This document shows, piece by piece, positions 2,931 through 18,904 of a stretch of DNA of 64,000 bases. The notes below the pieces were generated by a model, which was not told the DNA's origin, made no database searches, and worked only from the letters and a program-made list of their open reading frames with translations. The translations under genes and the position numbers were made by a program. Source of the stretch: a virus; the IMG/VR virus record IMGVR_UViG_3300036761_001580, positions 69,198 through 133,197 of that record, one strand, 5' to 3'. The stretch's first letter is position 1. Every line of letters starts with the position of its first letter.

Positions 2931-2966
2931 GTCTCGCACCTCCGTGGGTTTTTCTGCTACCCTCCC

Positions 2967-2995: not shown

Positions 2996-2998
2996 GGT

Positions 2999-3283: not shown

Positions 3284-3293
3284 CGGCCCGCCC

Positions 3294-3605: not shown

Positions 3606-3651
3606 GTTGCGCCCCTTTCCGTTGCGGCCGTTCTCTTTCCCCTACCTCCCC

Positions 3652-3680
3652 AATATAACCATCGGTTTCGGCCGGTCAAG
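3652..3680 (-). promoter_or_regulatory. class A promoter cassette (-10 variant TATATT)
   Basis: aatataacc ... gtcaag; stop codon of 3676..3921 lies inside the -35. Confidence 0.5.
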
Positions 3681-3921: not shown

Positions 3922-3959
3922 TCGGTCCCCCTCGGTTGCGGTCGTTGCCTCTCCCACCC

Positions 3960-3988
3960 AATCTAACCACCGGCTAGCGGCGGTCAAG
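3960..3988 (-). promoter_or_regulatory. class A promoter cassette (-10 variant TAGATT)
   Basis: aatctaacc ... gtcaag. Confidence 0.5.
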
Positions 3989-4004
3989 GGGTCGAGCGGT
4001 CGAT

Positions 4005-4643: not shown

Positions 4644-4681
4644 GGGTTAGCCCTCCCGGTTGCGTTGCTTGCCTATCCCCC

Positions 4682-4710
4682 AATGTAACCACCGGCTAGC
4701 GGCGGTCAAG
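4682..4710 (-). promoter_or_regulatory. class A promoter cassette
   Basis: ccccaatgtaacc ... ggtcaagggg. Confidence 0.55.
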
Positions 4711-4761
4711 GGGCGGGCCGGTCGATTCTGCCCACCTCGCCGGAGGGCTCTAGTTGCCCCG

Positions 4762-4905
4762 CTAGCCGGCGAGCGCCCGGAGAACCCACCGGAGGGCCGC
4801 CGCGAGCTTTCCGGCCGCCCTGGTGCCGGTGGGGGCCTCGCCGCAACACCTTTTCAGCTTGCGGCCCGATCCGCACGGACAGGGATCGTTGCGCCCCGGT
4901 TTCAT
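4762..4905 (-). CDS. small SEC-C-motif zinc-binding protein (47 aa)
   Basis: [23 protein letters not shown] matches the SEC-C metal-binding motif; ATG overlaps upstream stop (tagATG); below 60 aa so absent from ORF track. Confidence 0.45.
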
Positions 4906-5040
4906 CTAGAGCGCCTCGTATTCGACCTTTGCGAACGTGACCCTCGCCCGTTGCAGGGACGTGTCGATTCCGAGAATCGTGTACACGTCGAGCATGGCAA
5001 GCTCGACCATGAGACGACGGGCCGCGCGATCTTTCGCCAT
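4906..5040 (-). CDS. hypothetical small protein (44 aa)
   Basis: ATG 5040 with AAGGAGAA RBS after a class A promoter; rest of 336-aa track ORF is an Arg/Ser-rich frame artefact. Confidence 0.45.
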   Translation of the reverse strand: MAKDRAARRLMVELAMLDVYTILGIDTSLQRARVTFAKVEYEAL

Positions 5041-5102
5041 GTGAAATTCTCCTTGTCGTGGGCGGATAGTCGGGCCGCCCGTTGCTTGTCTCGCCTTGCC
5101 CC

Positions 5103-5131
5103 AATGTAACCACCGGGGTGCGGCTGTCAAG
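5103..5131 (-). promoter_or_regulatory. class A promoter cassette
   Basis: ccccaatgtaacc ... gtcaagtgcc. Confidence 0.55.
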
Positions 5132-5134
5132 TGC

Positions 5135-5434
5135 CTAGCTTGCAAACCTTTCGAGGTGCGACTCGACGCCCAAGGCTTTCCCCTTGCGGCGGATCGCCTC
5201 GCGTTGCATATCATCGACGAGGGCGACCATAGCCGCGCCGTCGAACCTCCCCGCGCCGTGTCTCCGGTTGCACTCCAGGTCGACGAGGTCACCGCTACCC
5301 TTCTCGAATTGCGCCCATACGTTCCGCAAGCCGTGCAAGCCGGAACAAGGCCATGAATCCATGAACCCCTCGATCTCGTCTTCTCCGAACGAAACCGAGT
5401 AGAGACTGCCGTTATCGTAAACGCGGATCGCCAT
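5135..5434 (-). CDS. hypothetical protein (99 aa)
   Basis: ATG 5434 with GGGAGGG RBS; track N-terminus MVTLGRWG is the promoter repeat read in frame. Confidence 0.6.
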   Translation of the reverse strand: MAIRVYDNGSLYSVSFGEDEIEGFMDSWPCSGLHGLRNVWAQFEKGSGDLVDLECNRRHGAGRFDGAAMVALVDDMQREAIRRKGKALGVESHLERFAS

Positions 5435-5468
5435 GTCGCCCTCCCGGTTGTTCGCTCCCCACCTCCCC

Positions 5469-5497
5469 AATGTAACCACCGGCTAACGCCGGTCAAG
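5469..5497 (-). promoter_or_regulatory. class A promoter cassette
   Basis: ccccaatgtaacc ... ggtcaagggg followed by GGCCCGGTCGATTT upstream element. Confidence 0.55.
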
Positions 5498-5519
5498 GGG
5501 TGGCCCGGTCGATTTCCGA

Positions 5520-6005
5520 CTACTCGGCCGCAAGCTCCGGGTACCGCTCGATCTTGCGTTGCCGGTCCTCCTCGATCTCGCGGGCGCGTATCGGCGCGAC
5601 GTGGGCGAGCCAACGCTGATGGGACGCCTCGGCCTCGGCGCGTCGGCGGTTGTCCTCGCGCGTCCTCGCGGCCTTCCACGCGGCGGCGCTCCGGGGGCTG
5701 GCGTCCTCGCTGGCGCGCTTTGCGGCGGCGAGCGCCCCGGTGCGGCTGGCGTACCCCTGGAAAGTGCCGGGAGTCGTGACCGCGCCCGTCTTCCGGTTGA
5801 ACCGTCGAACGGTGAACCGGCGCGAGCATGGGATTACCTTCCCGCCGCACGGACCCCGGAACCGTTCCGACGTCACGAAAAAGCATCCGCCGGGACCGTC
5901 GAACGCATCGAGGCACACGCGGGAGTCGAAGAACCGCATAGAATCCTTGTCGAAGAAATGACCCTTCGCGACCTTGCGGATCTCGTCAGTGTTGTAGAAT
6001 CTCAT
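5520..6005 (-). CDS. hypothetical protein (161 aa)
   Basis: ATG 6005 with CCGGAGGTG RBS; GC3-rich. Confidence 0.65.
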   Translation of the reverse strand: MRFYNTDEIRKVAKGHFFDKDSMRFFDSRVCLDAFDGPGGCFFVTSERFRGPCGGKVIPCSRRFTVRRFNRKTGAVTTPGTFQGYASRTGALAAAKRASEDASPRSAAAWKAARTREDNRRRAEAEASHQRWLAHVAPIRAREIEEDRQRKIERYPELAAE

Positions 6006-6038
6006 GCCGCACCTCCGGGGTTTTTCTTGCCTACCCCC

Positions 6039-6067
6039 AATGTAACCACCGGCTAGCGGCTGTCAAG
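6039..6067 (-). promoter_or_regulatory. class A promoter cassette
   Basis: cccccaatgtaacc ... tgtcaaggg. Confidence 0.55.
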
Positions 6068-6069
6068 GG

Positions 6070-6483
6070 CTAAACGCACCACCCGTCTTCGGCACCCCCG
6101 AAAGAGTTGTATGCACCCGTGCGCGGGGTGTGGATCTTGATCGCCGCGCCGCGCGGGTCACCGTTGAAATGGATCGACAGGCCGATCCGCTTGGCAAGCT
6201 CTTCGGCCTCGGCGCGGAGCTTGGCCTCGCGCCGTTCGTCGCGGAGCTTTCCCGCCTCGTCTTCGCGCCCCGTCCGCTCGTGGACGTAGCCGTTGCACTG
6301 GCGGGTGAAGATCGCGCGGAGCGCCCGCTCGATCCTTTCGAACGTGACGGTGTCCTCGACGGCGTTGAGAACCGCGAGCCGGATCTTGTTCTTTCGGACC
6401 GTGTGAAATTCGCTGTCTTTCGTCTCTTCCAAAACCGTCAACGCGGTACGAAGCGTCTCCATTGTGATCTTGGGCTCGTTCAT
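6070..6483 (-). CDS. hypothetical protein (137 aa)
   Basis: ATG 6483 with GGGGGAGGG RBS; upstream MVTLGQGT is the promoter repeat. Confidence 0.6.
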   Translation of the reverse strand: MNEPKITMETLRTALTVLEETKDSEFHTVRKNKIRLAVLNAVEDTVTFERIERALRAIFTRQCNGYVHERTGREDEAGKLRDERREAKLRAEAEELAKRIGLSIHFNGDPRGAAIKIHTPRTGAYNSFGGAEDGWCV

Positions 6484-6526
6484 GGCGTCCCTCCCCCGGT
6501 TGCGGTCGTTCGCTGTCCCTTGCCCC

Positions 6527-6555
6527 AATGTAACCACCGGTTGCGGGCTGTCAAG
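6527..6555 (-). promoter_or_regulatory. class A promoter cassette
   Basis: ccccaatgtaacc ... tgtcaaggg. Confidence 0.55.
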
Positions 6556-6557
6556 GG

Positions 6558-6731
6558 CTAGGGTGCGATCTCCTCGATGATCTTCGCCCTCTCGGCCTGG
6601 ACGTCGGCGAGGAATTCGGCCCGCGCCTCGCTCCTCGTGTAGTACAGGTACTTGCGCCGCACCAGATACCCGTTGACCCTCGCGGACAGTACCAGATACC
6701 CGTTGACCGTCTTTTCGACCGTGATCTTCAT
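6558..6731 (-). CDS. hypothetical small protein (57 aa) with internal in-frame 30-bp tandem duplication
   Basis: ATG 6731 with GGGGAGGAAACC RBS; duplication accagatacccgttgacc at 6661-6708 gives VNGYLV x2. Confidence 0.5.
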   Translation of the reverse strand: MKITVEKTVNGYLVLSARVNGYLVRRKYLYYTRSEARAEFLADVQAERAKIIEEIAP

Positions 6732-6762
6732 GGTTTCCTCCCCGGTTGCCGTCCCTTGTCCC

Positions 6763-6791
6763 AATGTAACCACCGGCTAGCGGCGGTCAAG
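6763..6791 (-). promoter_or_regulatory. class A promoter cassette
   Basis: cccaatgtaacc ... ggtcaagtgcc. Confidence 0.55.
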
Positions 6792-6798
6792 TGCCTGT

Positions 6799-7119
6799 CT
6801 ACCGGAAAAACTCGACGGTGCGGAGCCCTTCGATCTCCCGCACGGCGTCTTTGGCCTCGGCGCGGCTGTCCGCCCGGACGAACACCTCGACGGTACGATC
6901 CGCGTTGACCGCATGGTACAGGTTGGCGGGCATTCCCCAATACGCGCCGCCCGTGTCATAGCAACCGTCCACGAAGCGGAGACGGCGGAGGTGGAGCTTG
7001 CACGCGGGGCCGACGTTGTAGTACGTGGCACCTTTGTACTCTTCCGTGGGAATTCGGTTCCCGCGACCCATCGGAGCACCGTACTTACTGGAAACATTTG
7101 TGATCCCCGGATACGCCAT
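6799..7119 (-). CDS. hypothetical protein (106 aa)
   Basis: Internal ATG with GAGGGAAGGTG RBS; upstream track residues are the promoter repeat. Confidence 0.6.
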   Translation of the reverse strand: MAYPGITNVSSKYGAPMGRGNRIPTEEYKGATYYNVGPACKLHLRRLRFVDGCYDTGGAYWGMPANLYHAVNADRTVEVFVRADSRAEAKDAVREIEGLRTVEFFR

Positions 7120-7163
7120 GGTCCACCTTCCCTCGGTTGCGGCCGTTCGCTGTCCCTTGCCCC

Positions 7164-7192
7164 AATGTAACCACCGGCTAGCGACGGTCAAG
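7164..7192 (-). promoter_or_regulatory. class A promoter cassette
   Basis: ccccaatgtaacc ... ggtcaagggg + GGGCCGGTCGATTC upstream element. Confidence 0.55.
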
Positions 7193-7212
7193 GGGTGGGC
7201 CGGTCGATTCTC

Positions 7213-7677
7213 CTAGAACCACTCCCGCCCGGACATGGACACCGCGAGCGTCCCGTCCGCCCGGACGTTCGCCTCACGACCGAAAAAGAACTTCATGAGA
7301 CGGGCCTGGTTGCCCTTCTCGTCGTCGTCCGCCACCGGGGCCGTGGAAGTACGGGCCGGGGCCGGAACGGAGCTAGAAAGGCCACGCTCGCGCCGCCTGT
7401 CGGCGAGCGGCGGGTACTCCATGACGTTCCGGGGGTTCCACTCCCCCGCGCAGATGTAAGGTTCGTCCCCTTCCGTCTTCGTGTACGATACCGTGTCCTC
7501 GACTCGCCCTCTACGTCGGAGGTGTACCCCGTGGCACACGATAGCGACGATGGTAGCCGGAAGTGCGACAGCGCACCACATACAGATCCGGTGCCCGGTC
7601 GCGTCCTCGATCCCGTGTGTGGGGTACATATCGGTATCGATGCTTGTCGCCCCGCAACACTCGCAAGTGCCTATCAT
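7213..7677 (-). CDS. hypothetical Cys-rich protein (154 aa)
   Basis: GC3-rich ORF with several CxxC pairs; downstream of a class A promoter. Confidence 0.6.
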   Translation of the reverse strand: MIGTCECCGATSIDTDMYPTHGIEDATGHRICMWCAVALPATIVAIVCHGVHLRRRGRVEDTVSYTKTEGDEPYICAGEWNPRNVMEYPPLADRRRERGLSSSVPAPARTSTAPVADDDEKGNQARLMKFFFGREANVRADGTLAVSMSGREWF

Positions 7678-7722
7678 CGGAGTCTCCTTAGTTTGGGTGG
7701 GTAGTCGGCCCGCCTGGCTCCC

Positions 7723-7751
7723 AATGTAACGCTCGCTTTCATGCTGTCAAG
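7723..7751 (-). promoter_or_regulatory. class A promoter cassette (diverged spacer)
   Basis: cccaatgtaacg ... tgtcaagagg. Confidence 0.5.
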
Positions 7752-7754
7752 AGG

Positions 7755-8336
7755 CTAGCGCGAAAGCGCCTCGTACTCTTCCCACGTATCGTAACGGATG
7801 TAATCGTCGTGTTTCATCGGGCCGCACAACTTGTCGAACGTGGGGCGATCCCACAGGTTCGGATGGTGGCACGGGGCCGAGTCGCTACGGGACGTCTCTT
7901 TGAACCCTCGCCGCTCCATCTCCATGACGAACGCGGATTCGTTGTCGAACGTGAGCATCCCCCCTTCCAGGCCGCAAACCATGTACTTGAGCGGGGTGCC
8001 TACGTCCTCCGGGAAGAGCATCGCCTGGCCGCACCCGACGTCTTTCATCCAGTAGCCCGATCCGTCCGATGCGTACCACACGATCTCCAGAAGCGTGTTG
8101 TCCGCCTTCCGAATGATCGCGTGCAGGTTGTTCATGCCGTCGAACCACCCGCCCGACTTGACGAACGTCGTCACCACCTCGACCCTGAACCGGCTCACCA
8201 GGGCCGGAAGCGCCCGCTTGGCGAGCGCGAGGTGGTACTCGACGAACGACTTGGGCACCATGCCGCCCATGAGTGCCGACTTCTTCATGTCGTTGACGAC
8301 TTCGGCCGGAAGCGTGCCCTTCTCCCCGATGCTCAT
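7755..8336 (-). CDS. hypothetical protein (193 aa)
   Basis: GC3-rich ORF; RBS GAGGAGGAC upstream. Confidence 0.65.
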   Translation of the reverse strand: MSIGEKGTLPAEVVNDMKKSALMGGMVPKSFVEYHLALAKRALPALVSRFRVEVVTTFVKSGGWFDGMNNLHAIIRKADNTLLEIVWYASDGSGYWMKDVGCGQAMLFPEDVGTPLKYMVCGLEGGMLTFDNESAFVMEMERRGFKETSRSDSAPCHHPNLWDRPTFDKLCGPMKHDDYIRYDTWEEYEALSR

Positions 8337-8373
8337 GTGGTCCTCCTCGGTTGTTCGTTTCCCCTGGCTGGGA

Positions 8374-8402
8374 ATGTAACCACCGGTTTCAGGCTGTCAA
8401 GT
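8374..8402 (-). promoter_or_regulatory. class A promoter cassette
   Basis: gggaatgtaacc ... tgtcaagtgc. Confidence 0.5.
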
Positions 8403-8403
8403 G

Positions 8404-8541
8404 CTACTCCGGGTCAATCCCCTCCGCCGCTTCCACGAGGTCCTCGACAACCTCGTCCACCTCTTTCGACGTGAGGTCCTCCGGGGTTTCCAAGGCCGCC
8501 GCCGCGCGTCGGAGCAAGGCCGCGAGATCACGAGGCTTCAT
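8404..8541 (-). CDS. small acidic protein (~45 aa)
   Basis: ATG 8541 placed 5 nt after TAG of 8544..8789; the track's longer N-terminus overlaps the upstream gene. Confidence 0.4.
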   Translation of the reverse strand: MKPRDLAALLRRAAAALETPEDLTSKEVDEVVEDLVEAAEGIDPE

Positions 8542-8543
8542 GA

Positions 8544-8789
8544 CTACACCGTCTCCGGGTCGATCTCGACGGCGACCATCTTGTCCCCGTACTCGTCCAG
8601 GAGCTTCGCCAGATCGGACGCGAAGCGGACCGACGCCGACTCGTCGGTCATGCAAAACCGGACGCGCCCGTTGCGTATCGTGCGGACGACGACGTTGTGC
8701 ACCTTGGACCTATCCGAAAGCGTCTGCTCTTCCTCGTACAGATCAACGTGATCCGTGTGAACCGTATCCATGATCTTGAATCCGTCCAT
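8544..8789 (-). CDS. hypothetical protein (81 aa); first gene of leftward early arm
   Basis: ATG 8789 with ACGAGGAGGACAAC RBS directly downstream of the divergent class A promoter. Confidence 0.6.
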   Translation of the reverse strand: MDGFKIMDTVHTDHVDLYEEEQTLSDRSKVHNVVVRTIRNGRVRFCMTDESASVRFASDLAKLLDEYGDKMVAVEIDPETV

Positions 8790-8828
8790 GTTGTCCTCCT
8801 CGTTTGGTCGTTGCCCTGCCTACCGGGG

Positions 8829-8857
8829 AATGTAACCATGGGGAAAAGAGAGTCAAG
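8829..8857 (-). promoter_or_regulatory. class A promoter (leftward member of divergent pair)
   Basis: ggggaatgtaacc ... agtcaagcccc. Confidence 0.55.
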
Positions 8858-8861
8858 CCCC

Positions 8862-8889
8862 TTGACCTCCGAAAACCCGGTGTTACATT
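8862..8889 (+). promoter_or_regulatory. class A promoter (rightward member of divergent pair)
   Basis: ccccTTGACCtccgaaaacccggtgtTACATTgggg. Confidence 0.55.
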
Positions 8890-8930
8890 GGGGCAAGGCG
8901 GCCAGACTACCGCACAACAGGGAGGACGAG

Positions 8931-9155
8931 ATGGCGGATATGAAGTTCAAGAAAGAATGTATCACGAGGAGCGTTTGCCCATACTGCGGGAGTCGCAACA
9001 CGAAGGACGAGGGTGAAAGCCTCTATGAGGCAAACGAAGAGGACATCAAGCTGTACATCTGCGGGTGCCACGATTGCGGAAAGGAATGGCGCAACGTCTT
9101 CCGCCAGATCGACGTGATCGAGGGTGACGTGTACCCGGAGGTTGACGAGCCCTAG
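8931..9155 (+). CDS. small zinc-ribbon protein (74 aa); paralog of 12117..12329
   Basis: RBS GGGAGGACGAG-ATG; CPYCG...CGCHDCGKEW motif; conserved 5' leader. Confidence 0.65.
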   Translation: MADMKFKKECITRSVCPYCGSRNTKDEGESLYEANEEDIKLYICGCHDCGKEWRNVFRQIDVIEGDVYPEVDEP

Positions 9156-9159
9156 GCAC

Positions 9160-9187
9160 TTGACAGCCACTATCCTGTGGTTACATT
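9160..9187 (+). promoter_or_regulatory. class A promoter cassette
   Basis: cTTGACAgccactatcctgtggtTACATTgggg; leader near-identical to 8890-8930. Confidence 0.55.
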
Positions 9188-9228
9188 GGGGCAAGGCGGC
9201 ACGACTACCGCACAACAGGGAGGACGAC

Positions 9229-9411
9229 ATGGGAAAGAAGAAATCCAAGACGTTCGACGTCACGATCCGGGCAACGATCACGAAGACCATCACCGTCGAG
9301 GCCAAGGACGAAGACGAGGCCTGCGAGATCGCGCACGGGGAGTTCTCGGTGCTGAACGACGATGACCCCGAGGATTACGACGAGGAAACCGTCAACGTCG
9401 AAGAAGTCTGA
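9229..9411 (+). CDS. hypothetical small acidic protein (60 aa)
   Basis: RBS GGGAGGACGAC-ATG; GC3-rich. Confidence 0.55.
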   Translation: MGKKKSKTFDVTIRATITKTITVEAKDEDEACEIAHGEFSVLNDDDPEDYDEETVNVEEV

Positions 9412-9412
9412 C

Positions 9413-9610
9413 ATGACGAAACGAGCACAAAGGATAATCATCAGTCCCGAGCAAGAGGCCAGGGACGAGTACCTCTCGGCGCTCGCGACCTACCGGGAGG
9501 TCCGGCACGCGCCGGGCTCCGAGGACGAGGCGATCCGTGCCGTGCGAGCGGTCATGGATCGGGCCTATGACCTGTACGTCAAGACGTGCCACCCGAGGAG
9601 GGCAACATGA
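9413..9610 (+). CDS. hypothetical protein (~65 aa)
   Basis: ATG 3 nt after the previous TGA; GC3-rich. Confidence 0.5.
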   Translation: MTKRAQRIIISPEQEARDEYLSALATYREVRHAPGSEDEAIRAVRAVMDRAYDLYVKTCHPRRAT

Positions 9611-9861
9611 TCAAGAAGAAGCCGGAAGAGACGGGGATCGAGTTCCTCCGTCGTCTCGTAAGCGTGGCGAATTACACGAACGAGGAGGTGTTCGACGATC
9701 TCTCCGTCGAGGAGACGATCAAGCTCATCCGCGCGTGTTGGGATTCCGAGTTCGACATCTACGCAGACGCACTGTCGCCCAGCGAGAGGGCTTTCGCGGC
9801 GCGGACCGGTAAGCTGTCGAAGAAAGCCGTTGACCGGCTCAACAGCCTGTATGGGGACTAA
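9607..9861 (+). CDS. hypothetical protein (84 aa)
   Basis: ATGA overlap with upstream stop; RBS GAGGAGGG. Confidence 0.6.
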   Translation: MIKKKPEETGIEFLRRLVSVANYTNEEVFDDLSVEETIKLIRACWDSEFDIYADALSPSERAFAARTGKLSKKAVDRLNSLYGD

Positions 9862-9877
9862 AAGACCGCGCAACCCC

Positions 9878-9905
9878 TTGACACCCCGCAATCGATGGTT
9901 AGATT
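9878..9905 (+). promoter_or_regulatory. class A promoter cassette (-10 TAGATT)
   Basis: ccccTTGACAccccgcaatcgatggtTAGATTagggg. Confidence 0.5.
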
Positions 9906-9940
9906 AGGGGTACGAGGGCAACGCAACCGAGGAGGTCGAA

Positions 9941-10258
9941 ATGAGATCCGAAATGAAGAGTGCCGGACGCGCAGCGGCGGCCGTTCCGTTCGAGAAGGTG
10001 GAGCTGTCGAAGACGCTGGAAGCCGTGGCGTTCGTCCAGGTGTGCCTGGGGTGCGCTTACGACTCTCTCAAGTCGGGTGAGGTCGAGGACAACCCCGAGC
10101 CGCCCATGGACCTGGAGGGGATCGTGGAGGACATCAATCACGCTTGCGAGAAGCTCCAAAGGGAGATCCGCAAGCTCGACAGGAACACGCGCCTGGCGCT
10201 CGACATCGAGGTGGATCACACCTACGATCTCGTGCACCGCAACAGCCCGACGAGGTAG
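9941..10258 (+). CDS. hypothetical protein (105 aa)
   Basis: RBS GAGGAGGTCGAA-ATG. Confidence 0.65.
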   Translation: MRSEMKSAGRAAAAVPFEKVELSKTLEAVAFVQVCLGCAYDSLKSGEVEDNPEPPMDLEGIVEDINHACEKLQREIRKLDRNTRLALDIEVDHTYDLVHRNSPTR

Positions 10259-10269
10259 GGGAGGACGTC

Positions 10270-10545
10270 ATGAGCGGTTTCAATTGGGCAGGGTTCGTTA
10301 GCGTAATCCCCGAGGACATCACCCTCGTGGGCAACGCCAGGGGCAACATGAAGATCCTGGCGCAAGTCTTGGACGAGGGGTTCGAGGGCATGAAGCCGAT
10401 CTCCGAGGCGCGCAAGCGGGTGCTCGTGAGGAGCATCGAGAAGTTCACCATGGCGGCGACCGAGCTGAAACTGCTCTTGGAGGCGTTCTCCGCCGATCTG
10501 GAGTGCCGCGAGGCCGGGATCGACCCCACGGGCAACGAGGGCTAG
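10270..10545 (+). CDS. hypothetical protein (91 aa)
   Basis: RBS GGGGAGGACGTC-ATG; the track's upstream 42 aa are an Arg-rich artefact. Confidence 0.6.
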   Translation: MSGFNWAGFVSVIPEDITLVGNARGNMKILAQVLDEGFEGMKPISEARKRVLVRSIEKFTMAATELKLLLEAFSADLECREAGIDPTGNEG

Positions 10546-10563
10546 AAAGAGCCGAGTAGCCTC

Positions 10564-10591
10564 TTGACACCCCGCTAGGGGTGGTTACATT
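10564..10591 (+). promoter_or_regulatory. class A promoter cassette
   Basis: cctcTTGACAccccgctaggggtggtTACATTgggg. Confidence 0.55.
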
Positions 10592-10638
10592 GGGGATAGG
10601 CGGGATGACTACCCGCCGGCAACGACAAGGAGAACCCG

Positions 10639-11082
10639 ATGGACGAGAAGACGAAAATCCCGATGGATCTGCGGATCTTCATCGACGATGAGACGGAGTT
10701 CTACAACGGCATCCCGGACGGGGTGGGCAAGATCTTTTCGGCGCACCTCTTCGACGCGAACCTGGACGTGCACATCTGCTCGTTCCAGGCGAACAAGGAG
10801 TGCTACTACATCGGCCACACGTTCACCACGACGCGGGATATGACCGATGAGGAGCTGGAAGCGGCGGACGAGTACCTCCGGGAAGCGAACCGCGAGGAGC
10901 CGCGCGTCGACTACTTCGACGGCAAGATCAAGGGGCACCCCTATACGGTCGAGCCGCGCCCCAAGGCAGACGACCCCGAAGAGGCGCAGAGGCTTTACGA
11001 AGAGGTCATGGAGGAGCACATCGAGTACCTCGTCTGCAACTCCGAGACATGGGATTGTCTGGTCGGAAAGCCGGTCGAGTAG
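10639..11082 (+). CDS. hypothetical protein (147 aa)
   Basis: RBS AAGGAGAACCCG-ATG; leader stem-loop GGCGGG-atgACTAC-CCGCC. Confidence 0.7.
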   Translation: MDEKTKIPMDLRIFIDDETEFYNGIPDGVGKIFSAHLFDANLDVHICSFQANKECYYIGHTFTTTRDMTDEELEAADEYLREANREEPRVDYFDGKIKGHPYTVEPRPKADDPEEAQRLYEEVMEEHIEYLVCNSETWDCLVGKPVE

Positions 11083-11085
11083 CCC

Positions 11086-11113
11086 TTGACAGCCGCTCCC
11101 CGATGGTTACATT
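11086..11113 (+). promoter_or_regulatory. class A promoter cassette
   Basis: cccTTGACAgccgctccccgatggtTACATTgggg. Confidence 0.55.
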
Positions 11114-11147
11114 GGGGATAGGCGAGAAGAACAACGGGAGGGACATC

Positions 11148-11645
11148 ATGGACGCAAGGATGAAGGTCGCGAACGAGCTGAAGAAGGAGATCCGGCGATC
11201 CCTGGGCAACTACCCCAAGGTGACGAAGGTCGAGGTTCTCGGCCTGGAGAACGAGGGGCTCATGATCGCTGTCCGGTACCACACGACCGACGTCGTGAAG
11301 CTGTACCTGAACAAGGCGGGTTACGCGGTCATGTCGGTCGTGGTGACTTCGGGCGGGTGGATCTCGAAAACGACCGCCGAGCGGATCAACGCGGTGCTCC
11401 GCCACTTGAAGACGGGGTTCTTCGTGCGGTTCACCTACAAGCGGGAGACGTTCGCACGGGGCACCATGGGCCGCCAGATGGGCGACAGCCTGTACGACCA
11501 GAAGTTCACGCTCGTGGGACAGGGGATCGAGATGCCCTTCGAAGACGGGATGACGTTCAAGCGGGGCCGGGACGGGTTCAAGCTCACGTACCCCGGCAAG
11601 GCCGCGCAGAAGAGGCTCGCGAAGGTCGTCGTCGCGAAGAGGTAG
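11148..11645 (+). CDS. hypothetical protein (165 aa)
   Basis: RBS GGGAGGGACATC-ATG. Confidence 0.7.
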   Translation: MDARMKVANELKKEIRRSLGNYPKVTKVEVLGLENEGLMIAVRYHTTDVVKLYLNKAGYAVMSVVVTSGGWISKTTAERINAVLRHLKTGFFVRFTYKRETFARGTMGRQMGDSLYDQKFTLVGQGIEMPFEDGMTFKRGRDGFKLTYPGKAAQKRLAKVVVAKR

Positions 11646-11654
11646 GAGGACGCC

Positions 11655-11885
11655 ATGAAGAAGGTTATCGAAGTCAGCAAGGCGACAAAGGGTCAGATCT
11701 CGGTGCGGCTCGCGTTGCTCCGAGAGCAGGTAGAGACGCTCCGCGAAGACCTCGTGGTCGAGGACAGCGACAGCCAAGAGGCAAGCGACACCCTGGGGAC
11801 CATCCTCGACCTCATGATCGAGGCCGAGGGCTACCTGGACGCGGACGATCCGAACCAGGCAGAACACCTGGAGACGGGCGTCTAG
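11655..11885 (+). CDS. hypothetical acidic protein (76 aa)
   Basis: RBS GAGGTAGGAGGACGCC-ATG. Confidence 0.6.
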   Translation: MKKVIEVSKATKGQISVRLALLREQVETLREDLVVEDSDSQEASDTLGTILDLMIEAEGYLDADDPNQAEHLETGV

Positions 11886-12073
11886 TGCCACTCTTCATAG
11901 TGACGAAAAAGGAGATCTGGCGGCAGCGTGTCCTCGTCGAAGCCGAAGACGCAAACGAAGCCCGGTACAAAGCCGAGAAGGGCGAATCCGAGATCCATGA
12001 AGATCCACAGTACGAGGATGACCTCCTCGACAGGTTGTGGGCGGTAGAAGAGATTGAAGACCACACCGCTTGA
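11886..12073 (+). CDS. possible small protein (62 aa, GTG start)
   Basis: GTG immediately after TAG; GC3-rich acidic frame; stop TGA sits inside the next -35. Confidence 0.35.
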
Positions 12074-12097
12074 CAGTCACTCAGGGATGGTTACATT
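12070..12097 (+). promoter_or_regulatory. class A promoter cassette
   Basis: cgcTTGACAgtcactcagggatggtTACATTcc. Confidence 0.5.
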
Positions 12098-12116
12098 CCA
12101 AGCAGGAGGGACGAAC

Positions 12117-12329
12117 ATGGCGAAGATGAACTTCAAGGACGAGTGCCTGGCGAGCGGCGGATCGAAGTGCCCGTACTGCGGAAAGTACAACACCTGGGAG
12201 CACTCGATCACGGACAGCGACGACGAGGACGACGTCAAGAAGGTCACCGTCGAGTGCCACGATTGCGGCAAGGAGTGGACCGCCACCTTCCGCATCGAGG
12301 ACGTGACCGAAGTCGACGAGGAGGTCTGA
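12117..12329 (+). CDS. small zinc-ribbon protein (70 aa); paralog of 8931..9155
   Basis: RBS AGGAGGGACGAAC-ATG; CPYCGKYN...CHDCGKEW. Confidence 0.65.
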   Translation: MAKMNFKDECLASGGSKCPYCGKYNTWEHSITDSDDEDDVKKVTVECHDCGKEWTATFRIEDVTEVDEEV

Positions 12330-12330
12330 G

Positions 12331-12525
12331 ATGGCAACGAAGAAAACCATGCCGAAATGGCTCCGGAAGCTCTCGGCCGTGCAGAGGAAGCACCTCGCGG
12401 AGACGTGCGACGACGGGGTGACGCTTCGAGCATTCTGGAACAACCGCCAGTACCAGAAGGATCACTACATCGTATGCCGGGAATGCGAGGACATCGAGCA
12501 CCGGCTGACCGCCGAGAAGAGTTGA
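12331..12525 (+). CDS. hypothetical protein (64 aa)
   Basis: RBS CGAGGAGGTCTGAG-ATG; CRECEDIEH. Confidence 0.6.
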   Translation: MATKKTMPKWLRKLSAVQRKHLAETCDDGVTLRAFWNNRQYQKDHYIVCRECEDIEHRLTAEKS

Positions 12526-12535
12526 ACCCAGCCCC

Positions 12536-12563
12536 TTGACAGCCGCTCCCCGATGGTTACATT
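12536..12563 (+). promoter_or_regulatory. class A promoter cassette
   Basis: ccccTTGACAgccgctccccgatggtTACATTagggg. Confidence 0.55.
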
Positions 12564-12612
12564 AGGGGTAGGAGAGGCGAGCTGACTACTCGCACTGAAC
12601 AAGGAGAACATC

Positions 12613-12885
12613 ATGGACCTGAACAAGCTGATCGAGATCGTGGACGAGGGATACCCGGACGGGTTCGTGAAGCGGTGCTTCGACAACCCGAAGAAGGACC
12701 ACGGGGATACCCTGGCACTCTTCCTGGCCCGAGAGGTCAAGGACACGTTCGACGCGGACGCGACCGACGAGGCGCAGGTAGCCGAGGCGATCCGCGTCAT
12801 GGAGATGGCCCGGCGGGAGCTGGGAGACGTGCTCGTGGTCCTGGAGCGAGTCAAATTCACCAAGACCGGCAACGCGGTGAGGTAG
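12613..12885 (+). CDS. hypothetical protein (90 aa)
   Basis: Conserved leader hairpin GCGAG-ctgACTAC-tCGC + AACAAGGAGAAcatc-ATGGAC. Confidence 0.65.
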   Translation: MDLNKLIEIVDEGYPDGFVKRCFDNPKKDHGDTLALFLAREVKDTFDADATDEAQVAEAIRVMEMARRELGDVLVVLERVKFTKTGNAVR

Positions 12886-12889
12886 TCCG

Positions 12890-13135
12890 ATGGGCGAGGC
12901 ACGACGCCGAGCGGCAACCCGAGAAGAGCGCGCAGCTCAGAGCATCGCGCGCAAGGCTCGTGCCGAGGAGGCCAAGCGGGAAGACGCGCACAAGTGGTGG
13001 GAGGGCCTGACCGAAGAGGAGAAGGAATCCCAGCGGAAGGTGTGGCACGAGAAGGACAAGAAGCGAGCCAACGCGCGGCTGGTCATGGCGGCAGCAATGG
13101 GTCTGTTCGTCGGGGCAGATAGGGGGCTGAAATGA
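12890..13135 (+). CDS. hypothetical basic/coiled protein (81 aa)
   Basis: RBS GAGGTAG; Lys/Glu/Arg-rich. Confidence 0.55.
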   Translation: MGEARRRAATREERAAQSIARKARAEEAKREDAHKWWEGLTEEEKESQRKVWHEKDKKRANARLVMAAAMGLFVGADRGLK

Positions 13136-13353
13136 AACTGTGCCGCGACCAATTCGTAAAGAATGCATCGATAGGCCCCGATGCCCTCGTGGAGTTCTAT
13201 TGCACACGGAAAGCCGGTCATGCAGGGAAGCATTCCTGTGAGGTACAGAGCCTTCGTAGGGAGTCCGATAAAGGCTGGGTAAATGACGGATTCCCAATGG
13301 ACGACGTGAGTGACGGAGAGGGCACGCGCAAGGTGGGTATTCTTTCCTGGTAG
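13132..13353 (+). CDS. hypothetical protein (73 aa); start of a lower-GC patch
   Basis: ATGA overlap; local GC ~52%. Confidence 0.5.
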   Translation: MKLCRDQFVKNASIGPDALVEFYCTRKAGHAGKHSCEVQSLRRESDKGWVNDGFPMDDVSDGEGTRKVGILSW

Positions 13354-13359
13354 TAGCCC

Positions 13360-13387
13360 TTGACAGCCTCTCCCGAGTGGTTACATT
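13360..13387 (+). promoter_or_regulatory. class A promoter cassette
   Basis: cccTTGACAgcctctcccgagtggtTACATTcc. Confidence 0.5.
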
Positions 13388-13404
13388 CCAGGTAGGAGGA
13401 CAGC

Positions 13405-13562
13405 GTGGACACCGAGAAGAAACGACGTGCGAAGAGTGACAAGCTGGCGCTCGAAGAGCTGGTCGAGGAGATCGAGCCGGTAGAGCCGGTCGAGAAGAGG
13501 GTACGATCCTGGTTGCCGAAATTGGGTGACGTCCTCAACCTCCAGCCGACGAGAGCAAAGTG
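13405..13562 (+). CDS. possible small protein (52 aa, GTG start)
   Basis: RBS AGGTAGGAGGACAGC-GTG; below ORF-track size cutoff. Confidence 0.35.
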
Positions 13563-13799
13563 ACTTTGAAAGTCAAGATGCACCGTATCGTCCAAGGAGA
13601 CGACCTCTTAGAAAGAGCAGAGAAGCTCGGGCTCCCCGACGACTGCCAGCTCGCACTCATAGACGGACAATGGGCTCCGGCATTCCGTTGGGTTAGAGAA
13701 TATTACCTCCGCCGGGGTTCGTCGGATATCAGAAGTACGGCATGGGTTCTTATCAACGCCCACATCATAGAAGAGTATGAAGTCGAAGTGCAAGAATGA
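13560..13799 (+). CDS. hypothetical protein (79 aa)
   Basis: Overlapping start with previous stop; lower GC. Confidence 0.5.
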   Translation: MTLKVKMHRIVQGDDLLERAEKLGLPDDCQLALIDGQWAPAFRWVREYYLRRGSSDIRSTAWVLINAHIIEEYEVEVQE

Positions 13800-14104
13800 A
13801 ATCGAACGAGTGTATAGGTTGCGGATTTTGTTGCCGCAAAAGTCCGTGCAGTTTCTACCAGCTCGAAGATTGGGCAGCGTGGCACGGGTGCCCGCACCTC
13901 TTGTGGGACGGCACTCGGTGGGTGTGCGGAAAGTACGTCGAAGAGCCCGATACGAAGGTGAAAGAGCGTATGAAATTCTATCTCGCATTCGGCGCGGGTT
14001 GCAACTGCAATTTGAACACGTATAGGCGCACTTGCCACGTCCCGACACCGGAGGAACTGAAGGATGAAAAAGCCCTGCTTGACCGACTCCACAAGACCAA
14101 GTGA
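13796..14104 (+). CDS. hypothetical Cys-rich protein (102 aa)
   Basis: ATGA overlap; CIGCGFCC...CNCN pattern; lower GC (moron-like). Confidence 0.55.
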   Translation: MKSNECIGCGFCCRKSPCSFYQLEDWAAWHGCPHLLWDGTRWVCGKYVEEPDTKVKERMKFYLAFGAGCNCNLNTYRRTCHVPTPEELKDEKALLDRLHKTK

Positions 14105-14333
14105 GCCGGTCGTAAAGTCTCCCGGGGTCAATGTGCCCCCGGAATTCAAGGTCTTCATGATGCTCATGGCGCGGTCGTTCTCCGGGAGTGACTCCGTCTC
14201 CACGGCACTGAACCAACTGAGAAAACTCCTCACAGACAAGCACGGTCCCGAGTACGCAAATGCTTACGTGTACGAGCTAGCGCAAGCCTACGCTTCGAGG
14301 CGCTCGAAGTTCATGCAGGATTTCTGCGGTTAG
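14064..14333 (+). CDS. hypothetical protein (up to 89 aa; start uncertain)
   Basis: ORF overlaps previous gene by 40 nt; an internal ATG at ~14157 is an alternative start. Confidence 0.35.
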   Translation: MKKPCLTDSTRPSEPVVKSPGVNVPPEFKVFMMLMARSFSGSDSVSTALNQLRKLLTDKHGPEYANAYVYELAQAYASRRSKFMQDFCG

Positions 14334-14337
14334 CTCT

Positions 14338-14365
14338 TGACAGCCTCACTATAGTAGTTATATTC
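14338..14365 (+). promoter_or_regulatory. class A promoter cassette (-10 TATATT)
   Basis: ctcTTGACAgcctcactatagtagtTATATTccc. Confidence 0.5.
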
Positions 14366-14412
14366 CCAAGTAGGAGAAGCGAGCTGACCCTCGCTGAACA
14401 AGGAGAAGATCA

Positions 14413-14508
14413 TGGACATCTACAAACGTCCCGATGACGATGAGGGCCCCGATGACGATGAATACGATGAAGACCGCTACGGCGACAATCACGAGGACGA
14501 GGAGTAGA
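14413..14508 (+). CDS. tiny acidic peptide (31 aa)
   Basis: Conserved leader hairpin + AACAAGGAGAAgatc-ATGGAC as at 12613; MDIYKRPDDDEGPDDDEYDEDRYGDNHEDEE. Confidence 0.35.
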
Positions 14509-14510
14509 CC

Positions 14511-14696
14511 ATGAAGAACTGTGACCGCTGCGGAGGGAAGCTGACGACGCTCTACATCCGGGATGCCTACACGGCCAAGGAGTGCTCCGAGAAGGGGCTC
14601 GATCCGAACGAGCCGACCGGCAAGGCCTGTTTCAACCCCGAGTGCCCGAAGCACCCGGACATGAAGGCAGCCCTCGACGAGCTGCTGGATCTGTAG
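14511..14696 (+). CDS. small zinc-ribbon-like protein (61 aa)
   Basis: RBS GAGGAGTAGACC-ATG; CDRCGG...CFNPECP. Confidence 0.55.
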   Translation: MKNCDRCGGKLTTLYIRDAYTAKECSEKGLDPNEPTGKACFNPECPKHPDMKAALDELLDL

Positions 14697-14705
14697 GAGG
14701 GCACT

Positions 14706-14993
14706 GTGGGAGAAATCAGATCGCAGCGAGAGAAGCTCCGGGACGAACTAACGCGGCAGCTCAACAGGGTGGGGATGGGGTTCGGTGACATGGGGCCGAC
14801 CTGCGTCTGCTGCACCGAGGATCTCATGAAGGATGGTGTCGTGCGCCTCTACGACGAGTGGTGCTCGTACACCACGACGTTCGAGGACGCCATCGACCGG
14901 CTGCGGCAGCTCCCGAGCGGTACGGGCGACAACACGGTCGATTACGAGAACTTCTGCGAGGCGTTCCGCACTCTGCCCAAGGAGGTGGATTGA
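14706..14993 (+). CDS. hypothetical protein (95 aa, GTG start)
   Basis: RBS TAGGAGGGCACT-GTG. Confidence 0.5.
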   Translation: MGEIRSQREKLRDELTRQLNRVGMGFGDMGPTCVCCTEDLMKDGVVRLYDEWCSYTTTFEDAIDRLRQLPSGTGDNTVDYENFCEAFRTLPKEVD

Positions 14994-15012
14994 TGGAGAA
15001 GGGAAACGGCTA

Positions 15013-16169: not shown

Positions 16170-16379
16170 TTGCAGGAGAAGCTCGCCAAGCTCCGCTGTC
16201 TAAGTTGCGGATACCATTGGGAAGATCACCCGGGTCCGCACTCGTCTTTCTGGACCAAGCCCGAAGATCAGAACAAGTTCTGCCCCAAGTGCGGCCACCT
16301 CTACGCAGTCTGGGAGAACTACTCAGAATTCTCGACCGCTTGGGAGGAGTACAACGCTACCCGGCACAGGAACTCCTGA
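16170..16379 (+). CDS. zinc-ribbon-like small protein (69 aa, TTG start?)
   Basis: CLSCGYHW...CPKCGH; start codon and RBS weak. Confidence 0.4.
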   Translation: MQEKLAKLRCLSCGYHWEDHPGPHSSFWTKPEDQNKFCPKCGHLYAVWENYSEFSTAWEEYNATRHRNS

Positions 16380-16695
16380 CGCAGCCCCTCTAAGCCTTTC
16401 GACCAAAAACCCGCACTCGGACAGCCTGAACGCCGGCAGGGCCTTAGAACGGCTCCTGGAGGGCTCAGAATGGATCGGGTATTGACTTAGGTGGGACCTT
16501 CGGAACCACCTTCCAAGGGCATGTAGTTATTTCCTTCGTACACCGACGATCTTCATCCCGAAAGGAGCAGGCAGACGACAAGGGCTTGACGCACCGAGCC
16601 TTCACCCGGGGCGGGACTGTAATCGGACGGGTGGGCTCGTCTTCGCGGATCATGAGCCCCATCATACAACTCTACGGTTTGGAAATGTAAAAAAT

Positions 16696-16763
16696 GGCCC
16701 CCGGCGGCGACAAGGAGAACACCGCCAGGGGCCGAGGGTAGTGGCCGGGTGACTATTCCGGCC
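16696..16763. terminator. Pair of GC-rich hairpins in the convergent intergenic region (putative bidirectional terminators)
   Basis: ggcccccggcgg-N14-ccgccaggggcc and ggccgg-gtgactatt-ccggcc between the + and - gene blocks. Confidence 0.3.
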
Positions 16764-16899
16764 TCCTCAGTGACAGGGCCGAAGCCCTTAGGGCATTCTG
16801 AACAGGTGCCCTGGTCCTGTGGGAGCGTGATGTCTCTGCGCTCCGTTCAGTGTTAAATATAGCCATGCCAAGGACGATGTCAAGAAGACCCTTCAGCTA

Positions 16900-17139
16900 T
16901 TAATGACTAAAAGGGGGGTCCCATGTGTCGCCCCGAACATCTTCTATAGGGGCCGTTGGGTGCTTTTGCACCACTTCAAAGTACGGATACTTCGTATCCG
17001 TCTTCTCAAATTTCTTGCACTGTGGACAAAAGAGCCCTCGGTCAGTACCCTCGTTGGAGTAATGACAGTAGTCCACCATATCTGTTCCGCAGTCACAAAC
17101 TGCGGTAACAACGAGTACACTAGTCTTCTTTTCCTTCAT
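16900..17139 (-). CDS. hypothetical Cys-containing protein (79 aa); low-GC patch
   Basis: ORF in ~48% GC region; CDCG...CPQC. Confidence 0.5.
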   Translation of the reverse strand: MKEKKTSVLVVTAVCDCGTDMVDYCHYSNEGTDRGLFCPQCKKFEKTDTKYPYFEVVQKHPTAPIEDVRGDTWDPPFSH

Positions 17140-18379: not shown

Positions 18380-18904
18380 TTAGTACTTCTCCGCCGGGCG
18401 TGTCTGCTGATACCAACTGCGCTGGTCGATGGGCACACCTTCGAGAAACAACCCCCATGCCTCCTCTGCGGTGTACGCCGAAACCCCCATTTGTTCTTCG
18501 GGGAAGAAGTATCCGGGTGTGGTCTCCTCACCTGGCTTGACGCATTTGAAATGCACCAGGAATTTCGACCTCTCGCCGCAATCCTCCGTGTGGGTATCTT
18601 CGAACCCCGTATCGGTGCTTATTCCGCCGCATGTGCATTCACGTTCCATTTCCCCCTCCTTCTGTTCTCCCCAGCACATATCCCAATTGTCGCGATTGGG
18701 GTTGTTCTCTTCCTCTTGCTCACGGAGCTTGGCCGTCTCTGGATTTCCAGGAATTCCGAGTTGCGGGTAGTCATCCCAGAACTTCTCGCTCAGTGCGTAG
18801 TGCTCCGCGTCGTCCAAGTAGACATCCCCTGGCTTCTCAACCGACCGCGCGGCACAGAGTGCGACGACATGACCATCGATTCGTCTGATTCGTATAGACA
18901 TCAC
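18380..18904 (-). CDS. hypothetical protein (174 aa)
   Basis: GC3-rich ORF. Confidence 0.65.
   Translation of the reverse strand: MMSIRIRRIDGHVVALCAARSVEKPGDVYLDDAEHYALSEKFWDDYPQLGIPGNPETAKLREQEEENNPNRDNWDMCWGEQKEGEMERECTCGGISTDTGFEDTHTEDCGERSKFLVHFKCVKPGEETTPGYFFPEEQMGVSAYTAEEAWGLFLEGVPIDQRSWYQQTRPAEKY

Follow-up and report, generated by a model that had tools for sequence, protein, structure and literature searches.

A conserved GACUA hairpin and extended Shine-Dalgarno block in early-type leaders of an uncultivated phage, and a candidate small RNA with loops complementary to both

We report a recurrent RNA hairpin, carrying GACUA in its loop, and the extended Shine-Dalgarno (SD) block that follows it in the leaders of early-type genes of an uncultivated phage-like genome (G+C ~60%), together with a candidate small RNA (sRNA) whose loops are complementary to the two elements. 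The stretch analysed, referred to below as the window, comprises 64,000 nucleotides of the IMG/VR virus record IMGVR_UViG_3300036761_001580 (positions 69,198 to 133,197 of that record). Two arrays of near-identical, sigma-70-type promoters of the pattern CTTGAC-N15-GTTAnATT diverge around position 8859 of the window. There are 22 perfect copies, 13 on the minus strand (2967-8857, the left arm) and nine on the plus strand (8861-14364, the right arm), and behind each promoter lie one to a few small ORFan genes. When up to two mismatches are allowed, the pattern finds 27 matches in the window against 0.5 expected. A scan for intrinsic terminators returned 16 in the window against 11.5 expected, hence no enrichment, and none at all on the sense strand inside either arm.

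The closest relative of this phage is a viral contig of 211,982 bp, IMGVR_UViG_3300031952_000001 (= Ga0315294_10000012), to which it is 80-98% identical in mosaic patches. Several other mosaic relatives were gathered by scanning metagenome contigs for the promoter pattern, and protein-based look-ups added three more distant ones (L299, L300 and L301; L numbers designate contigs throughout), in which the neighbouring proteins are 63-75% identical. The mosaicism takes the form of one leader fused to different genes and of one gene standing behind different leaders. Searches of the GenBank phages with megablast and tblastn gave no match to this phage, which thus has no cultured relative in that collection, and Pfam and PHROGs searches with nine large proteins placed almost none of them in a known family and did not identify the family of the phage.

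Seven of the 22 promoter-proximal leaders of the window carry the hairpin (Table 1; leaders are named by the first coordinate of their promoter). Its stem is G+C, of 4-6 base pairs (bp), and its loop is of 5-9 nt, with GACUA on the 3' side. The five plus-strand copies had been pointed out in an original prediction made from the letters of the sequence, and all of them are present within a few bases of the positions given there, 8-14 nt past the -10 element of a perfect promoter copy. That prediction gave the loop motif as GACUAC; because the final C pairs as the first base of the 3' arm, the conserved motif of the loop is GACUA. It also took the hairpin to be a mark of the right arm, which we did not find: two left-arm leaders carry it (H6 and H7), and four of the nine right-arm leaders, behind promoters 9877, 11085, 12069 and 13359, are without it. 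In five of the seven hairpin leaders only a few nt separate the predicted transcription start from the onset of the hairpin; in 5131 the hairpin lies ~17 nt into the leader.

Table 1. Positions of the leader hairpins, their SD blocks and the features of the candidate sRNA gene in the window (CM, covariance model; MFE, minimum free energy)
Feature	Position	Strand	Sequence and remarks
H1 hairpin	8898-8913	+	GCGG-CCAGACUA-CCGC (loop ccagacua); downstream of promoter 8861-8889; CM match 14.7 bits
SD block of H1	8917-8926	+	ACAGGGAGGA; start codon 8931; pairs with T-loop over 10 bp including 2 G.U; hybrid -12.5 kcal/mol
H2 hairpin	9196-9211	+	GCGG-CACGACUA-CCGC (loop cacgacua); promoter 9159-9187; MFE structure; CM 17.3 bits
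SD block of H2	9215-9224	+	ACAGGGAGGA; start codon 9229; 10 bp including two G.U with T-loop
H3 hairpin	10599-10617	+	GGCGGG-AUGACUA-CCCGCC; promoter 10563-10591; MFE -13.1 kcal/mol; CM 36.1 bits
SD block of H3	10623-10635	+	CGACAAGGAGAAC; 13 nt exactly complementary to sRNA nt 131-143; start codon 10639
H4 hairpin	12577-12593	+	GCGAG-CUGACUA-CUCGC; promoter 12535-12563; CM 34 bits; identical in distant relatives L299 and L301
SD block of H4	12599-12610	+	ACAAGGAGAACA; 12 nt exactly complementary to sRNA nt 130-141; start codon 12613
H5 hairpin	14378-14395	+	(A)GCGAG-CUGACC-CUCGC(U), variant loop retaining UGAC; promoter 14336-14364; MFE structure; CM 19 bits
SD block of H5	14398-14407	+	ACAAGGAGAA; 10 nt exactly complementary to sRNA T-loop; start codon 14412
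H6 hairpin (left arm)	7696-7714	-	GGCGGG-CCGACUA-CCCACC, one C.A mismatch; promoter 7751-7723; CM 32 bits
SD of H6	7689-7683	-	AAGGAGA; start codon 7677
H7 hairpin (left arm)	5060-5080	-	GGGCGG-CCCGACUAU-CCGCCC (loop cccgacuau); promoter 5131-5103
SD block of H7	5047-5058	-	CGACAAGGAGAA; 12 nt exactly complementary to sRNA nt 132-143; start codon 5040
sRNA promoter	16856-16883	-	TTGACA-16-TATATT; 11/12 consensus matches; same class as the early promoters
Candidate sRNA (~160 nt)	16688-16850	-	Non-coding; four local stem-loops (one the terminator hairpin) and a short long-range helix, then U-run
K-hairpin	16743-16763	-	GGCCGG-AAUAGUCAC-CCGGCC; 9-nt loop; loop core UAGUCA at 16755-16750
Terminator hairpin	16696-16733	-	10-nt loop (T-loop) UUCUCCUUGU at 16719-16710, exact reverse complement of ACAAGGAGAA

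GACTA occurs 61 times in the window, counting both strands, and six of these occurrences fall within 45 nt downstream of the 22 promoters (~1 kb in all), where ~0.5 would be expected; all six are flanked by complementary arms. A CM built from the seven copies recovered every one of them and found only weak matches (E>0.7) in the rest of the window. Six of the seven leaders have the hairpin as their minimum-energy fold; the z-scores, of -1.5 to +0.5, are unremarkable, and since folding energy by itself does not stand out, the case for the element rests on its recurrence, conservation and covariation. The leader orthologous to that of H6 in L155 has a perfect stem, GCGGG/CCCGC. No Rfam family was found for the hairpin in a permissive search of 2500-15000 (best E=0.26), and at the gathering threshold Rfam 15 reports only a transfer-messenger RNA (tmRNA) and one tRNA in the window; a match to Mu-gpT-DE at 14335-14414 (E 0.76) is weak and was treated as chance.

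Further candidates were set aside. Hairpins with GACUA that lie at other places in the window (18764-18778 and 35024-35040, among others) were treated as chance, with weak CM scores where they were scored; that at 18764-18778 appears, in context, within a reading frame, and the hairpins at 15250 of L299 and 3813 of L301 lie inside called genes and were treated likewise. Some copies have the 5-bp stem and 7-nt loop (YU-GAC-UA) of an anticodon stem-loop, and the idea of such a mimic was dropped, the equivalent of U33 not being conserved and the loop length varying. Two relatives of the element were seen outside the window: L174 has at 4800-4824 (+), just upstream of a promoter, the same stem as H6 (GGCGGG/CCCACC, C.A mismatch included) around an unrelated loop, AAACUU, and L300 has at 1657-1681 (-), behind a promoter, a degenerate copy with the loop AUGACAA and a 3-bp stem, which looks like a decaying member of the family.

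Downstream of the hairpin, at a distance of 3-10 nt, stands the extended SD block, of consensus ACA(A/G)GGAG(A/G)A. The start region had been described as AACAAGGAGAA..ATGGAC, a description that holds for leaders 12535 and 14336 and nearly for 10563 (CGACAAGGAGAACCCGATGGAC) and fails for 8861 and 9159 (ACAACAGGGAGGACGA-ATGG). ATGGAC moreover opens genes behind leaders without the hairpin (11085, and 8857 on the minus strand) and so falls outside the element. Similarly, the block GGCAACGACCGCAACCG(A/G)GGGAGG, which had been assigned to the left-arm leaders in general, is found in leaders 3988, 6555, 7192 and 4710 only, and does not mark the arm, a version of it being present at right-arm leader 9877. 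Leaders that lack the hairpin have a CA-rich sequence (such as gcgaacaaccgggagg and ggcaacgaccgcaaccg), and most of them are less folded than shuffled sequences (z +0.7 to +1.8), which is consistent with selection for unstructured translation-initiation regions. A second sRNA directed against the CA-rich block of the left-arm leaders was considered and dropped, as the search for an RNA complementary to that block found no reverse-complement copies outside the leaders.

The genes behind the hairpin leaders do not belong together by family. Two zinc-ribbon paralogues (CPYCG...CHDCGKEW) illustrate this, one of them, 8931-9155 (+), standing behind a hairpin leader and the other, 12117-12329 (+), behind a short leader without one, so the presence of the hairpin is independent of protein family. 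The product of 9229-9411 matches a DpnD/PcfM-like family (E 2.7e-6).

Across the relatives, the hairpin and a ACAAGGAG(A) block were found in at least 13 sequence versions before at least 12 unrelated genes. The hairpin of the 'MAKD...' gene (H7) follows a promoter in the window and is intercistronic in L022/L173/L174 and in L155, where it lies ~10 nt past the stop codon of the gene upstream; the hairpin therefore goes with the ribosome-binding region rather than with the promoter or 5' end. For the 'MDLNKLIEIVDEG' gene, the leaders of the window, L299 and L301 have the same 17-nt hairpin and the same ACAAGGAGA, with differing spacers in between (actga, gga or gagg) and differing upstream flanks, and the genes themselves share ~74% amino-acid identity. 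Hairpin and SD block are thus invariant while the spacer changes in both sequence and length. Within the stem, pair 4 is G-C, A-U or G.U and an outer pair is G-C or U-A, and in the hairpin alignment 90% of the cells are paired, a share that falls to 38-62% if the 3' partners are shifted by 1-3 columns; the covariation is genuine but thin. Similarity among the leaders is accordingly not confined to the ribosome-binding site (RBS), the hairpin being conserved and its stem co-varying. Unrelated downstream genes, intercistronic copies, drifting spacers and stem covariation together support the earlier proposal that these leaders are conserved for a function at the RNA level that does not depend on the gene, and we regard the hairpin and the SD block, on this comparative evidence, as selected RNA elements. 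Beyond the relatives, a scan of viral contigs for GTTACATT-N(6-30)-GACTAC gave mostly chance matches, the sole locus with several (L043) being an unrelated AT-rich coding repeat, and a scan of viral contigs for GACTACNCG-N(4-16)-ACAAGGAG gave a known relative and chance matches only, with no other credible leader hairpin.

At the far end of the right arm, outside the coordinates covered by the original prediction, lies the candidate sRNA gene. By its consensus matches it qualifies as an independent transcription unit, with a promoter of its own and, at its end, a predicted intrinsic terminator formed by a 14-bp hairpin and a U-run (16733-16688). The predicted fold has an MFE of -78.4 kcal/mol and a z-score of -4.55, none of 200 shuffled sequences folding as well. 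Homologues are present in L165/L004 (99% identical), L152 (58%) and L301 (63%), the lineages being 58-64% identical overall; each stands behind a canonical CTTGAC..GGTTACATT promoter, and the layout from promoter to terminator is the same in L165, L152 and L301. The consensus structure contains eight compensatory pairs over two lineages and ten over three, a UUCG tetraloop is exchanged for GAAA among the lineages, and the U.G pairs of the terminator stem fit an RNA of the minus strand only. Taken together, these features indicate a real structured RNA gene. Rfam has no family for it (best E=2.8 over 16300-17000).

Conservation within the candidate sRNA is concentrated in two of its loops. Two blocks are the longest that are both invariant and unpaired: UAGUCA, in the K-hairpin loop, and CUCCUUGUC, in the loop of the terminator hairpin (the T-loop), a loop that reads UUCUCCUUGU in the window. 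When paired positions are also counted, the longest invariant block outside the -35 region of the promoter is CTCCTTGTC, again in the terminator-hairpin loop, and the next is the 6-nt TAGTCA of the K-loop, tied with the stem block GCCGGG. Position 2 of the K-hairpin stem is G-C, C-G or U-A in the three lineages around an invariant UAGUCA. The pattern of the terminator loop was found in viral contigs only in a known relative; five matches to it among genome contigs, in high-GC bacteria, were taken as chance. Some 20 nt past the terminator an open reading frame (ORF) of 66 amino acids (16465-16665, minus strand) is conserved in L152 (77%) and L165 (56%), for which the protein database held no homologue candidates. 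As this ORF lies ~500 nt further off in L165, the sRNA is probably not merely its leader. A search for related loci with the 308-amino-acid ORF next to the sRNA found no relatives.

These two conserved loops are complementary to the two conserved elements of the leaders: the K-loop UAGUCA complements the hairpin loop, (U)GACUA, and the T-loop UUCUCCUUGU complements ACAAGGAGAA in the SD block. ACAAGGAGAA occurs five times in 128 kb (both strands), four times in leaders of the hairpin class and once on the strand opposite the sRNA loop itself. Among the six longest exact matches complementary to the sRNA on either strand of the window (at least 12 nt), three are SD blocks (13, 12 and 12 nt), all of them at the one sRNA loop, and no exact complementarity of the sRNA to the window is longer than the 13-nt match, that of H3. 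Overall the T-loop seed matches four SD blocks exactly over 10-13 nt and two more over 10 bp with two G.U pairs. Since whole-sequence RNAduplex runs of the sRNA against the leaders gave long, implausible duplexes and ignore intramolecular structure, they were set aside in favour of loop-restricted duplexes and opening energies. By these measures both partners appear accessible, with opening energies of 0.38 kcal/mol for the T-loop, 0.01 kcal/mol for the K-loop and 0-2.9 kcal/mol for the leader sites; the hybrids at the SD block reach -12.5 to -13.4 kcal/mol in six of the seven leaders and -9.0 in leader 7751, and the loop-loop contact is worth ~-5 kcal/mol, or -3.1 for the CUGACC loop of leader 14336. 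When 23 leaders were ranked by loop-restricted pairing, the best five were all of the hairpin class. Two leaders away from the arrays carry ACAAGGAGG at the RBS without a hairpin: one follows a canonical early-type promoter at 22747-22719 (-), directly downstream of a TnpB gene, and the other, where the RBS is an apparent one and which is a possible extra target of the T-loop, follows a weaker promoter-like site with two mismatches at 27462-27490 (-).

From the elements, their conservation and covariation, and the complementarity and accessibility of the two RNAs, we infer pairing in vivo and, with it, the direction and timing of a regulation that might run as follows. The GACUA hairpin and the extended SD block would be the two parts of an RNA address tag on a subset of early mRNAs, and the partner would be the RNA of ~160 nt that the phage encodes behind a promoter of early type, where the right arm has its far end. 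Pairing of the T-loop with the SD block would hide the ribosome-binding site, and a kissing contact of UAGUCA in the K-loop with the hairpin loop of the leader would add speed, as well as specificity over the many other leaders of GGAGG type. As the sRNA builds up, translation of the tagged early genes would be repressed and their mRNAs would probably then decay, and the result would be either a subclass of early genes expressed in a short pulse or the exclusion of superinfecting relatives. Because its promoter is of the early type, the sRNA would accumulate alongside its targets and could in this way trim the tagged genes to a short pulse. The tag would move between genes by the shuffling of promoter and leader cassettes, so that genes could join or leave such a regulon by recombination. 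That the hairpin and the SD block are a two-part address for an sRNA masking the ribosome-binding site seems to us an evenly balanced proposition on the sequence evidence; that a phage sRNA coordinately silences an early-gene regulon through a portable tag, a GACUA kissing loop plus SD block moved by cassette shuffling, we put forward more tentatively.

Several observations count against this interpretation. The complementarity was noticed after the fact and with one candidate RNA, and the T-loop match has at its core (CUCCUU with AAGGAG) a generic anti-SD/SD pairing. The loop-loop match extends over only 5-6 bp, or 4 bp for the CUGACC variant, and in leader 7751, which has only AAGGAGA, the match to the T-loop is of 7 nt. 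Three other exact 12-mers complementary to the sRNA occur elsewhere in the window by chance. Both RNAs present their two sites in the same 5' to 3' order, which rules out a single continuous duplex; pairing would have to take the form of two separate contacts. The loops of the sRNA and the motifs of the leaders are constant throughout the lineages recovered, so that no covariation of seed and target could be seen. In the L301 lineage the T-loop has an extra A, which shortens the match to 8 nt; the insertion coincides with more variable bases after ACAAGGAG in the leaders of L301, which is weakly suggestive. Finally, tag and sRNA were found together in three lineages only, the sRNA locus of L299 not having been recovered.

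The hairpin can also be explained without the sRNA. A phage or host RNA-binding protein, whether a translational repressor, an endoribonuclease or an antiterminator, might read the GACUA loop, in which case the match to the sRNA would be a coincidence or the work of a separate regulator. A conserved asymmetric loop, a stem that varies yet stays complementary and a variable 5' side of the loop are typical of protein-bound hairpins, and the hairpin, by its distance from the SD, would lie within the footprint of the initiating 30S subunit, so that initiation could be blocked by a protein bound there; the N-termini of two early products are rich in arginine (5040-4906, minus strand, MAKDRAARR; 12890-13135, MGEARRRAATREER), which is only suggestive. 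Pfam and PHROGs searches with ten early proteins, however, matched none of them to a known RNA-binding, nuclease or antiterminator family, those with the nine large proteins gave no candidate of these kinds either, an antiterminator would find no sense-strand terminators in either arm to override, and the loop is not a pentaloop of the boxB type. Such an operator also leaves unexplained why the hairpin is coupled to the ACAAGGAG block and why both complement the two most conserved loops of a single sRNA. The original prediction had offered a protein regulator, an RNase site or stability as possible purposes of the leaders; the evidence points instead to a trans-acting RNA, and we consider a protein partner possible but doubtful. 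Stability, in the form of a 5' stabiliser against 5'-end-dependent RNases, or else of an insulator that keeps the SD unpaired, would require no partner at all. It would suit the onset of the hairpin near the predicted transcription start in most of the hairpin leaders of the window and an MFE hairpin that leaves the SD open, and selection on leader structure does exist, because the leaders without the hairpin are unusually unstructured. A pure stability element, though, needs no GACUA that stays invariant while flanks and spacers drift, and the hairpin is found also well inside leader 5131 and between cistrons in the relatives, and it is missing from two in three of the early leaders, which are equally strong; this explanation is in our judgement improbable.

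The elements might, alternatively, have no regulatory role of their own and be carried along in recombining promoter and leader cassettes, in the manner of the promoter-early stem-loop (PeSL) cassettes, which are described as mediating such shuffling (PMC2839356). Near-identical promoters repeated 22 times in two divergent arms, and relatives in which leader and gene combinations have been swapped, are what this would predict. Shuffling accounts for the spread of the cassettes, not for their maintenance: the two islands are conserved between variable spacers although neighbouring proteins have diverged to 63-75% identity, stem variants are compensatory or G.U, one copy persists without any promoter, and both islands are complementary to the sRNA. 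Passive carriage seems to us a shade less probable still than a structural role. A further reading would have the element work as duplex DNA, its inverted repeat being an operator, or a roadblock site, that a DNA-binding protein recognises immediately past the promoter. The arms do form such a repeat, it lies at about +3 to +30 of seven promoters, and the C.A mismatch of H6 would be a G.U pair on the opposite strand. The arms nevertheless vary and stay complementary around a conserved asymmetric centre, the opposite of the pattern of a dimeric operator, so the element is better read as a single-stranded hairpin; furthermore, the G.U pairs of two variants work in the sense-strand RNA only and the element is kept between cistrons, far from promoters. 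A double-stranded DNA operator is unlikely, and we give it very little weight.

Other features of the window lie apart from the tagged leaders. A full-length, one-piece tmRNA (34385-34750, minus strand; 74 bits in Rfam, tag peptide ADADVIPFPKMAVPSLQRAA by ARAGORN) adjoins a tRNA-Pro(UGG) at 33554-33630 (-). The TnpB gene mentioned above (22787-23995, minus strand) encodes an IS605 OrfB-type protein with the domains HTH_OrfB_IS605, OrfB_IS605 and a Cas12f1-like TNB. At 30747-33485 (-) a protein of 912 amino acids has a Major Vault Protein shoulder domain (E 1.8e-29) and a Vault_3 repeat, which is unusual for a phage.

Post-transcriptional control of the early genes of lytic phages is known mainly through proteins, such as RegA and RegB of T4, and phage sRNAs that act on the phage's own mRNAs are known mainly from temperate immunity circuits (c4, CI, sar and OOP). 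If our proposal of an sRNA reading a two-part tag is right, a multi-target sRNA with a modular, recombination-mobile address would add to giant phages a level of temporal control that is new, and would account for the difference between some early leaders and the others, with which they would otherwise be interchangeable. The short tag, hairpin plus SD, could together with its sRNA also be put to use as a compact, orthogonal switch of translation.

Several known systems resemble parts of this arrangement. No family of Rfam 15, where c4, RNAIII and phage cis-elements are included, gave a covariance-model match at or near the gathering score for either the hairpin or the sRNA. The SAS and ESAS of the Cluster K mycobacteriophages are short conserved sequences that contain the SD and precede a subset of start codons, some with an adjacent inverted repeat. 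They are similar in that an SD-including sequence is conserved upstream of some starts independently of gene identity, the sequences themselves differing from the block of the window, and SAS are not known to have a partner RNA. Lambdoid nut sites (boxB/N) likewise place small G+C hairpins in early leader RNA just past early promoters, and the boxB loop of P22, GACAA, resembles GACUA, a resemblance that serves as a lead rather than as a test. The boxB hairpin has a 5-bp stem and a pentaloop closed by a defined pair, whereas the conserved part of the more variable loops of the window abuts the 3' arm; nut sites come in two copies and the window hairpin in seven. Antitermination of the nut/N type finds neither sense-strand terminators within the arms nor an N-like protein among the ten early proteins scanned. 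In T4-type phages, PeSL cassettes consist of an early promoter and stem-loop repeats that mediate gene shuffling (PMC2839356). The likeness lies in the arrays of strong sigma-70-like early promoters with a stem-loop before small ORFans, and the mosaic relatives are consistent with recombination between repeats. The PeSL stem-loop, however, is a transcription terminator, whereas the hairpin of the window stands in a 5' untranslated region, is followed by a CA-rich spacer and the SD with no U-run, has a loop conserved in sequence and is confined to a third of the cassettes.

The nearest parallels to the proposed mechanism are antisense RNAs. RNAIII of S. aureus uses C-rich hairpin loops, including that of its terminator hairpin, as anti-SD seeds. 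With coa it forms an SD-masking duplex and a separate loop-loop contact, and this one sRNA acts on several mRNAs that share a signature (PMC2837412). The bipartite recognition is similar to that proposed here, a likeness of mechanism and not of homology; RNAIII, ~500 nt long, comes from a bacterium and not from a phage, and its loop-loop contact with coa is downstream, in the coding region, whereas here it would be upstream of the SD. In the phages P1 and P7, loop sequences of the c4 RNA pair around the RBS of the ant mRNA and block its translation (review PMC12197685). Like the candidate sRNA, c4 (immI) is a trans-acting RNA encoded by the phage, which presents in its loops short complementarities to non-contiguous sites at the RBS (PMC12197685). 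It has no sequence or Rfam relationship to the candidate sRNA, and it has one target (ant/icd) in a temperate immunity circuit, whereas here at least six to seven separately promoted early genes carry a portable tag, one of the target sites is itself a hairpin loop, and the genome, of ~212 kb, shows no sign of lysogeny functions in the window. The control we propose would therefore be of a known kind, translational control by an antisense sRNA, and what would be new is its use of a tag that has two parts, is portable and is shared by multiple early genes in a giant phage.

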